The translations under genes and the position numbers were made by a program. 64,000 bases of DNA from Escherichia phage Turkey3, in sequence record PQ471515.1; one strand, written 5' to 3'. This document shows positions 13,675-14,352 of this stretch, in pieces. Numbering within the stretch: position 1 is the stretch's first letter; every line of letters begins with the position of its first letter. Under the pieces are notes generated by a model that was given only the letters and a program-made list of their open reading frames with translations, did not search any database and was not told where the DNA came from.

Positions 13675-13932
13675 ATGGCTGTTGGATTCGCGAAGGACGG
13701 GGCCGAGCAAGACGAGATTAACGCAGTGATTCAGGCCGCTGTAAACCACGCTAGAACGCAAATTAACGCACAAATAGAATCACTGATACATTGCCTCGAC
13801 TGTGGCGATAAAATCCCTGAGAATCGCCGCCAGGTCGTTAAGGGGTGTAAGTACTGTATCACTTGCCAGGAGGATCATGATAGTACTTTTAAACGTCAAC
13901 CGCGTAATTGTTGGCATAGATCTATGAGATAA
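13675..13932 (+). CDS. TraR/DksA-family C4 zinc-finger protein
   Basis: C-x2-C-G-D-K-I-P-E-N-R-R...C-x2-C matches TraR/DksA zinc-finger signature; RBS GAGG. Confidence 0.6.
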   Translation: MAVGFAKDGAEQDEINAVIQAAVNHARTQINAQIESLIHCLDCGDKIPENRRQVVKGCKYCITCQEDHDSTFKRQPRNCWHRSMR

Positions 13933-13938
13933 AAAGTA

Positions 13939-13966
13939 TTGACAGTACTGAAAGATAGTGTATAAT
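13939..13966 (+). promoter_or_regulatory. sigma70-like promoter
   Basis: TTGACA 13939, TATAAT 13961. Confidence 0.6.
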
Positions 13967-13995
13967 GTTTTATATCTTGACTGAGGATTGAAATC

Positions 13996-14352
13996 ATGGG
14001 AATACAACATATCACGCGTACTACTGACAATGGCGAGATCACTGGCTATCAAGTACAGGGCAAAGTAGCACAATTGCAGTACTGGTTTGTTAAACGTGGA
14101 ATCATTGCACCGGATCTTGATTATGACCGTGTAGCGTTTATTGATTCTCTTTATGTTGATCCTGATAGTCGGGGGAATGGTGAAGGTAACGAATTAATGA
14201 ATGCCTTTATTGATGCCGCCGATGATTCAGATTGTATCATCTTAGAATGCGATACGGGTGAAGATAACGCCTTTAATCTTAAAGAATGGTATGAAGGTTT
14301 CGGATTCGAGGTACTGATCGATAGTGAATATCCTATCATGATTTTATCATAG
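13996..14352 (+). CDS. putative GNAT-type acetyltransferase (small)
   Basis: SLYVDPDSRGNGEGNELM resembles GNAT motif A (R-x-x-G-x-G); RBS GAGGA. Confidence 0.4.
   Translation: MGIQHITRTTDNGEITGYQVQGKVAQLQYWFVKRGIIAPDLDYDRVAFIDSLYVDPDSRGNGEGNELMNAFIDAADDSDCIILECDTGEDNAFNLKEWYEGFGFEVLIDSEYPIMILS

Follow-up and report, generated by a model that had tools for sequence, protein, structure and literature searches.

Two adjacent genes of a jumbo coliphage, one predicted to encode a C4 zinc-finger protein of the DksA/TraR family and the other a GNAT acetyltransferase, are best explained as two independent, separately promoted early genes of the phage terminal repeat, and we regard this account, taken as a whole, as probable. 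The genes lie in a window of 64,000 nucleotides (the whole stretch of DNA analyzed here) from Escherichia phage Turkey3 (PQ471515.1). The zinc-finger gene occupies positions 13675..13932 (85 aa) and the GNAT gene positions 13996..14352 (118 aa), both on the + strand, exactly where a first-pass annotation of this DNA had located them. Both family assignments are already known, the proteins being of well-known kinds: public Asteriusvirus records name the 85-aa ORF "DksA-like zinc-finger protein" or "C-4 type zinc finger protein" and the 118-aa ORF "acetyltransferase" or "GNAT family N-acetyltransferase". The new points that emerge from our analysis are modest, namely an apparent YbiI-like subtype of the zinc finger with an FxxDxA tip and a distinct tail, a predicted minimal-GNAT fold, a probable link of this GNAT to phage polyvalent proteins, and the finding of no conserved linkage between the two genes.

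Between about 13.4 and 14.6 kb the window shares 97.8% identity with Escherichia phage vB_Ec-M-J, and the values for 121Q, fEgEco12 and further Asteriusvirus jumbo coliphages are 90–95%; judged by nucleotide identity, the source phage is itself an Asteriusvirus jumbo coliphage. The annotation of vB_Ec-M-J places both genes within a 21.5-kb direct terminal repeat. In the record of the related phage fEgEco12 they are found at 11.2–12.4 kb, and its repeat of ~21 kb has been confirmed experimentally by PhageTerm and restriction digests (PMC13070987). The terminal repeat carries about fifty small genes on the + strand, nearly all of which are genus-specific orphans. An Rfam scan of positions 13200–14500 yielded no match, and neither the zinc-finger protein nor the GNAT was matched by PADLOC. 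The annotated genes of this region are all on the + strand. Two ORFs on the − strand (97 and 98 aa) overlap the genes and were rejected, because every annotated gene here is on the opposite strand and because these frames run across gene boundaries and a promoter.

Within the initial 24 kb of the window there are 29 stereotyped consensus σ70 promoters, every one of them on the + strand. They share a pattern of TTGACA or TTGCAA, a spacer of 16–17 nt, TATAAT and then an AT-rich discriminator, for example GTTTTACA, with a mean discriminator GC fraction of 0.28 across the set. The GNAT gene has a perfect σ70 promoter of its own at 13939..13966 (+ strand; TTGACA-16-TATAAT, 12/12 consensus), followed by the AT-rich discriminator GTTTTATA; the hexamers of this promoter are kept in four phages while its spacer drifts. 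On the 5' side of the zinc-finger gene there is instead a 330-bp stretch with a conserved promoter and a conserved small ORF. This promoter, a σ70-type element at 13350..13378 (+ strand; TTGACA-17-CATAAT with a TG extended −10, 11/12 consensus), belongs to the stereotyped set, is conserved in four Asteriusvirus genomes, and is likely to be the start of a transcript that carries both the small ORF and the zinc-finger gene. The ORF itself (13529..13675, + strand, 48 aa, TTG start) matches PHROG 38664 (function unknown; E = 9e-34), corresponds to gene 293 in the annotation of 121Q, and has a frame that is open in four phages, the divergent JP4 included. It may be translationally coupled to the zinc-finger gene, because its TAA stop overlaps the zinc-finger ATG in the sequence TAATG. 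A weaker promoter-like site (13601..13629, + strand; TTGAAT-17-TATAAT, 10/12 consensus) is also present inside the 48-aa ORF, near the zinc-finger gene. The conserved leader at 13385–13530 folds no better than its shuffled versions (z = −0.56).

Shine-Dalgarno elements precede both genes, GAGG at 13663–13666 for the zinc-finger gene and GAGGA at 13983–13987 for the GNAT gene. Because the two genes sit in the terminal repeat among stereotyped σ70 promoters, their early transcription by the host RNA polymerase is plausible, and can reasonably be inferred from position and promoters. In the T4-like phage Marfa a homologue of the zinc-finger gene sits in the tk-rI-regB early region. Our literature search on Asteriusvirus promoter work found nothing specific.

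One question is whether these neighbors act together, as the first-pass annotation may have meant when it considered the two genes jointly. In a functional module of this kind, a RimI-like GNAT might acetylate the N-terminal alanine of the zinc-finger protein after removal of its methionine, or both proteins might act on RNA polymerase; more speculatively, the GNAT could N-terminally acetylate a TraR-like neighbor whose tip would then come to lie near the RNA polymerase active site. The genes are adjacent on the same strand, their adjacency is kept in every Asteriusvirus genome that we examined, and a terminator-like site between them was looked for and none was found. Furthermore, the zinc-finger protein begins with an invariant M-A, and the structural neighbors of the GNAT include N-terminal acetyltransferases. 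However, the perfect promoter at 13939–13966 separates the two genes, and their distributions differ widely, with 959 phage records for the zinc-finger family (tblastn) vs 24 for the GNAT. At four loci with GNAT homologues outside Asteriusvirus there is no DksA-type finger within 3–6 kb, and two examined loci with finger homologues are without such a GNAT. Within a single genus of genomes that are 90–98% identical, adjacency would reflect just shared ancestry. A paired function is thus unsupported, because the two are neighbors in Asteriusvirus only, have separate promoters, and elsewhere occur each without the other; on this distribution we rejected a conserved two-gene module and consider a functional one very unlikely. 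The account of two independent, separately promoted early genes is the one under which we discuss each protein below.

Profile searches confirm that the 85-aa protein belongs to the DksA/TraR C4 zinc-finger family. It matches the Pfam model zf-dskA_traR (PF01258) with 43.9 bits against a gathering threshold of 24.9 (E = 2.3e-11), and PHROG 54 'DksA-like zinc-finger protein' with an E-value of 1.8e-18. The signature CxxCGDKIPENRR...CxxC highlighted in the first-pass annotation is indeed present, as CLDCGDKIPENRR...CITC. In the alignment of homologues it defines a zinc ribbon at 13792..13866 (+ strand), C40-L-D-C43-GDKIPENRR...C61-I-T-C64, that is CxxC-N17-CxxC, with an additional cysteine at position 58. 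The four cysteines C40, C43, C61 and C64 are invariant in 18 aligned sequences. The segment I47-P48-E49-x-R51-R52 aligns without gaps with I44-P45-E46-x-R48-R49 of TraR; P48, R51 and R52, which together with the conserved E49 are the equivalents of TraR P45, R48, R49 and E46, are invariant among the zinc-finger homologues.

Comparisons with named members of the family point to YbiI. The E. coli protein YbiI (PDB: 2KGO) is the top PDB match (E = 8.7e-12, residues 1–70, 37% identity), and TraR in its RNA polymerase complexes (PDB: 6N57, 5W1S) ranks second, with E-values of about 3e-6 to 3.9e-6. Among NCBIfam models, that of YbiI (PRK11019/NF008243) ranks first with 80.1 bits, below its equivalog cut-off of 96; the TraR models score 51.5 bits vs 59.7 (TIGR02419) and 32.4 vs 108 (NF010268), and the DksA model 17.9 vs 105 (NF033459). 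Because the YbiI, TraR and DksA scores all fall below their cut-offs, the 85-aa protein is best classified, on these scores, as a YbiI-like member that is closer to YbiI than to TraR and is the orthologue of no named protein. Hence, the earlier description of this gene as TraR/DksA-type stands with respect to the C4 family and the IPExRR contact residues, and has to be narrowed with respect to the subtype, which is YbiI-like, has an FxxDxA tip and scores below the TraR cut-offs.

The two ends of the protein differ from those of TraR. The N-terminal tip, MAVGFAKDGAEQ (13675..13710, + strand), is nearly invariant in 17 homologues, which align with the phage protein starting at residue 1. It contains F5-A-K-D8-G-A10, i.e. 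FxxDxA, where TraR and DksA have DxxDxA, a motif that TraR requires: Phe takes the place of the first Asp, and the critical second Asp is retained, as is the Ala. YbiI has a similar N-terminal motif (MA-G-aromatic-A-x-D-x-A, with W-x-x-D-x-A in the place of the tip; its sequence is MASGWANDDAVN). The register of FxxDxA was set by aligning the protein with YbiI and by the distance to the first cysteine, which is 32 residues in the phage protein vs 31 in TraR and YbiI, a difference of a one-residue loop insertion. A MAFFT alignment that included TraR placed an artificial 4-residue gap in the N-terminus of the zinc-finger protein. There are 3–4 additional residues ahead of the tip motif. With hhalign, the 85-aa protein and TraR align over residues 21–70 with a probability of 98.5%, and residues 1–20 could not be aligned with TraR. 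The alignment ends at residue 67 of the 73 in TraR, beyond which the phage protein has its own proline-containing tail, FKRQPRNCWHRSMR (13888..13929, + strand). This phage-specific tail is nearly invariant in phage homologues, with the motif FKRxPRNCWHRSMR; taken alone, it gives matches to PHROG 25948 and to short remnants carried by some T4-like phages; the homologue from a related Klebsiella jumbo phage has a YbiI-type tail rather than the phage-specific one. In the tblastn searches, homologues of the zinc-finger protein were found in many T4-like Klebsiella and Escherichia phages, in Erwinia jumbo phages, and as Orf73 of lambda. Relative to both 121Q and JP4, the zinc-finger gene shows proportionally more synonymous than non-synonymous changes.

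A rationale for the function of this protein comes from earlier studies on TraR and its relatives. The N-terminal helix of TraR with its DxxDxA motif reaches the active site of RNA polymerase, residues P45, E46, R48 and R49 of its zinc domain touch the rim helices and β'-Si3, and its C-terminal helix touches β-Si1 (PMC9239242, PMC6970531). TraR and five phage homologues were shown to bind RNA polymerase, to inhibit rRNA and ribosomal-protein promoters, and to complement a dksA deletion; P2 Orf82 and Xenorhabdus Gp34, with their incomplete tip motifs, kept RNA polymerase binding and dksA complementation at reduced activity (PMC9239242). Over-expressed YbiI likewise allows a dksA deletion strain to overcome its amino-acid auxotrophy (PMC2613031, reported there as data not shown). 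[quoted passage not shown] The zinc domain with its IPExRR residues would then anchor the protein at the rim of the secondary channel, and the protein would inhibit promoters with unstable open complexes, such as those of rRNA and ribosomal-protein genes, as do TraR and lambda Orf73. Early promoters of the phage itself, which follow the consensus and have AT-rich discriminators, would be spared.

Alternatively, the 85-aa protein could be a YbiI-like zinc ribbon that acts outside the secondary channel, on another host protein, on a nucleic acid or in a function related to metals, and the conserved motifs at its two termini would then be there for that partner. Several observations are in keeping with such a role. 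YbiI rather than TraR is the top match, and the sole paper that tested YbiI linked it to an iron operon, with Blankschien et al. considering it to be more probably tied to iron metabolism (PMC2613031). The FxxDxA tip, an N-terminus that resists alignment with TraR, and the conserved tail RNCWHRSMR, for which TraR has no counterpart, point the same way, and some C4 zinc-finger relatives of DksA that lack the tip motif are on record as having no DksA-like action on RNA polymerase (PMC9239242). However, the residues with which TraR docks are conserved in the phage protein, the rescue of the dksA deletion was obtained with YbiI itself, and all five of the tested phage homologues bound RNA polymerase, the two with imperfect tips among them. 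In light of this we judge the alternative to be rather unlikely, and secondary-channel binding continues to be the reading that we prefer.

The 118-aa protein is confirmed by its sequence profiles as a member of the GNAT superfamily, in agreement with the first-pass annotation, and like its neighbor it clears the curated Pfam thresholds. The outcome that would have refuted that annotation, a lack of profile matches to the TraR/DksA or GNAT families, did not occur, and its cautious view of the functions is a reasonable one. Three Pfam GNAT families recover it: Acetyltransf_1 (PF00583) with 37.2 bits vs a gathering threshold of 20.7, Acetyltransf_7 (PF13508) with 33.5 vs 27, and PF13673 with 26.3 vs 23.6; it also matches PHROG 1249 'acetyltransferase'. 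The GNAT profile match is limited to the C-terminal two thirds of the protein (profile positions 53–116 of 116) and covers motifs A and B. The RGNGEG noted earlier is motif A, the acetyl-CoA pyrophosphate-binding loop R59-G-N-G62-E-G64 (14170..14187, + strand), which fits the pattern Q/R-x-x-G-x-G/A and in which R59, G62 and G64 are invariant or nearly so in an alignment of 37 family members. Further downstream the alignment reveals a family-specific segment, D86-T-G-E89-D-N-A-F93-N-L95-K-E-W98-Y99 (14251..14292, + strand), with W98 and Y99 invariant and D86, E89, F93 and L95 at least 90% conserved in the 37 sequences. Other conserved positions are G17-Y18, P113 and M115. Y99 occupies what we take to be the position of the general-acid tyrosine of many GNATs, and would presumably have a catalytic role. 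The homologues align starting at about residue 3. The GNAT gene, too, has proportionally more synonymous than non-synonymous changes: between it and its counterpart in JP4 there are 6 synonymous and no non-synonymous changes, and relative to 121Q there are 20 synonymous and 10 non-synonymous ones.

Structure prediction with AlphaFold2 required the 37-sequence alignment, a single sequence being useless for this purpose (pLDDT 47.6); with the alignment the model reached a pLDDT of 93.9 and a pTM of 0.86. In this model a β-hairpin and a short helix are followed by a GNAT core with the order β4-α3-β5-α4-β6-β7. In place of the canonical N-terminal arm (β1-α1-α2-β2-β3), residues 1–41 form just the hairpin and the one short helix. 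As modeled, the protein counts as a minimal GNAT, comparable to AcrVA5 with its 95 residues. Its model structurally matches small GNATs and this anti-CRISPR acetyltransferase, and the best matches among characterized proteins are AcrVA5, RimI and Naa50, all of which modify proteins. Sequence and profile searches of the PDB recovered no close sequence relative among characterized enzymes.

The range of relatives of this GNAT depends strongly on the search. A word-indexed search found 2 of them, the same with a profile query 11, and an exhaustive search 290. The relatives are mainly solo proteins of 117–145 aa on phage contigs, and some are domains of large proteins combined with ART-PolyVal, PARP-like, ParB_N, NUDIX, amidoligase or DUF5661 domains; the homologous domains in such multidomain proteins are recovered with E-values of 1e-9 to 1e-14. 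For instance, one protein (P0110) combines the GNAT with ART-PolyVal (E = 4.9e-25) and NUDIX, and another (P0063) with PARP-like and ParB_N domains. The 24 phage records of the 118-aa GNAT itself are from Asteriusvirus and one Stephanstirmvirinae phage (47% identity). Iyer, Burroughs, Anand, de Souza and Aravind described in 2017 a GNAT family of phage polyvalent proteins that belongs to a RimI-like clade and has solo versions too; their prediction for this family is protein modification at the time of invasion (PMC5512222).

Both Y99 and motif A are consistent with a 118-aa protein that is active in acetyl transfer. We propose that, soon after infection begins, it would most likely use acetyl-CoA to acetylate an amino group on a protein of the host. 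That the substrate is a protein is our best guess, by analogy with its clade and domain partners, because the polyvalent-protein GNAT family has been placed as RimI-like and is predicted to modify proteins (PMC5512222). A different possibility is that the substrate is a small molecule, for example a polyamine, a toxic metabolite or an antibiotic, or else that the enzyme acetylates aminoacyl-tRNA in the manner of the TacT/AtaT toxins; it would then serve in detoxification or in translation shut-off. There are sequence and fold matches to phosphinothricin, aminoglycoside, puromycin and streptothricin acetyltransferases that score like those to protein acetyltransferases, weak fold matches to the GNAT toxins 7byy and 6ajm, and one homologue that adjoins the tRNA repair genes for RtcB and a CCA-adding enzyme. 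On the other hand, relatives are embedded in polyvalent proteins beside ADP-ribosyltransferase and ParB domains, and such proteins have been interpreted as effectors on host macromolecules at entry (PMC5512222); the top characterized matches, as noted above, are protein acetyltransferases. No DUF1778-type antitoxin was recognized beside the GNAT gene in the PHROG scan, in which its neighbors are orphan PHROGs, and every NCBIfam resistance model scores the protein far below its cut-off. Taken together, we consider a small-molecule or tRNA substrate improbable, and a host protein remains the substrate that we favor.

A more specific proposal goes considerably further than this and must be regarded as decidedly unlikely in its full form: the GNAT might, like AcrVA5, acetylate a specific E. 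coli protein at a single site, and would as such be an enzymatic host-takeover or anti-defense effector of a kind undescribed in coliphages. Conjectural candidates for its target would be a defense nuclease, a subunit of RNA polymerase or a ribosomal protein. Under this scenario, and with the same low likelihood, the GNAT would have been released from a polyvalent-protein context, and its expression, from the terminal repeat, would fall in the opening minutes of infection.

None of these findings on the zinc-finger and GNAT genes alters current concepts, and their interest is mainly practical. The two genes are nearly the only ones with a recognizable domain among about fifty orphan early genes of the terminal repeat, and because of this they are the easiest entry points to host takeover by these phages. 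Hundreds of large virulent phages, T4-like ones included, carry a member of the YbiI-like zinc-finger subfamily, and E. coli itself has YbiI. We know of no biochemical characterization of any member, and an assay of this subfamily would tell if a protein with the FxxDxA tip still regulates RNA polymerase. The 118-aa GNAT, in turn, ties a solo phage gene to the effector repertoire of polyvalent proteins.

Placed beside known systems, the GNAT resembles AcrVA5 (PDB: 6IUF) in fold only; a profile search against PDB sequences did not recover this protein. The phage protein also differs from it in having its own N-terminal hairpin and helix. Cas12a, the target of AcrVA5, is to our knowledge not among the defenses of E. 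coli. Relative to the polyvalent-protein GNAT family, the relatives recovered here have the same architecture, and their identity with that family is deduced from this architecture rather than by accession (PMC5512222); its members are domains of large proteins, whereas the 118-aa GNAT is a stand-alone protein and the predicted product of an early gene. Rac, the GNAT of phiKMV-like phages, leads to cleavage of the RNA polymerase α subunit and to shut-off of host transcription (PMC7552054). Here the likeness is in role only, both being phage GNATs that are present while the host RNA polymerase is in use, in different hosts and different phage families.

The zinc-finger protein and the 88-aa YbiI are of similar length and share the zinc ribbon and IPxxRR, but the phage protein lacks the YbiI tail and has the phage-specific FKRxPRNCWHRSMR in its place; furthermore, YbiI is encoded by a chromosomal gene of E. 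coli and the 85-aa protein by a phage gene. [quoted passage not shown] In contrast to the 151-aa DksA, however, the 85-aa phage protein is without the coiled coil and without the ppGpp-binding region. The TraR C-terminal helix that contacts β-Si1 differs from the tail of the phage protein. Lambda Orf73 is 47% identical to it over residues 29–75 (tblastn), and TraR and Orf73 are, like it, small proteins predicted to comprise a single helix and a C4 zinc ribbon in the absence of the DksA coiled coil. Finally, TraR and its phage homologues are encoded by mobile elements and expressed while the host RNA polymerase is in use, a setting that the 85-aa protein of the Asteriusvirus terminal repeat would share.

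The early genes between positions 1759 and 20606 of the window are arranged in stereotyped cassettes (for example 12243-12320, 14360-14431 and 14629-14706). The promoter of each such cassette consists of an A-rich upstream stretch, a TTGACA or TTGCAA element, a 16-nt spacer, TATAAT and the discriminator GTTTTACA, and is followed by a hairpin in the 5'-UTR and then by a ribosome-binding site rich in purines, upstream of the ATG. Two forms of the UTR hairpin were observed, namely GGGGAGAA-loop-TTCTCCCC and GGGGAA-loop-TTCCCC; it is absent from the genes for the TraR-type zinc-finger protein and the small GNAT acetyltransferase. 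Within the first 24 kb of the window we counted 29 cassette promoters, all 29 of them on the plus strand. A distinct set of GC-containing hairpins, AAAGGGATTGACTCCGGTCAGTCCCTTT, lies between early genes on the same strand (11679-11706, 15337-15364 and 18615-18644). A -35-like TTGACT lies within these hairpins and a TATTAT comes after them; they look like combined terminator-promoter elements.

The palindrome AGTACT occurs in 264 copies in the 64-kb window, as against 95 for TTTAAA, the second commonest 6-mer palindrome. It often takes the form CAGTACTG, and CAGTACT was observed 242 times, with 7 occurrences expected from shuffled controls. The palindrome was noted at 1-22800 and 39000-64000 of the window. 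Intergenic sequence carries 11.1 copies per kb and coding sequence 3.2 per kb, the intragenic copies including some within the zinc-finger and GNAT genes. In the related phage vB_Ec-M-J, the 21.4-kb direct terminal repeat (locus L001, 1-21452) is likewise rich in the palindrome, with 142 copies, and the 3.7 kb downstream of the repeat has none. At early promoters it is found both beside the -35 element (AGTAC-TTGCAA) and directly 5' of the -10 element (AGTACTG-TATAAT). Many GC-containing 6-bp palindromes, including CTGCAG, GAGCTC, CCATGG, CAGCTG and CTCGAG, have zero copies in the whole 64 kb; their absence suggests restriction-site avoidance, over and above what the window's low GC content (34.5%) would account for.

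An ORF that encodes 48 aa and starts with TTG (13529-13675, plus strand) precedes the zinc-finger gene, and its stop codon shares bases with that gene's ATG (TAATG). The frame of this ORF is open in four phages, among them JP4 with its much more divergent DNA, and it matches PHROG 38664, a family of unknown function; it is annotated in phage 121Q and missing from the annotation of vB_Ec-M-J. The ORF may be a small gene translationally coupled to the zinc-finger gene. On its 5' side is a long leader (13385-13520, plus strand), of which the segment 13385-13450 is nearly identical across the four phages, exceeding the conservation of the ORF downstream, and 13440-13515 holds five GATCAA (Dam-site) repeats. 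The leader has no match in Rfam, and its predicted RNA folding was not significant (z = -0.56).

Relatives of both proteins were encountered in other phages. In some T4-like coliphages the zinc-finger protein is present only as its last 26 residues, the FKR..RNCWHRSMR tail, at about 70% identity (OL960577.1, 57740-57817; KF562341.1, 56957-57034); this sequence corresponds to PHROG 25948 and is either a remnant of the zinc-finger gene or a separately annotated mini-ORF. A homologue of the GNAT protein is encoded on a metagenomic phage contig (locus L005, 384-7827), with a gene for a CCA-adding enzyme (PolyA_pol) directly downstream and one for an RtcB RNA ligase about 4 kb upstream; its surroundings are a tRNA-repair neighbourhood.
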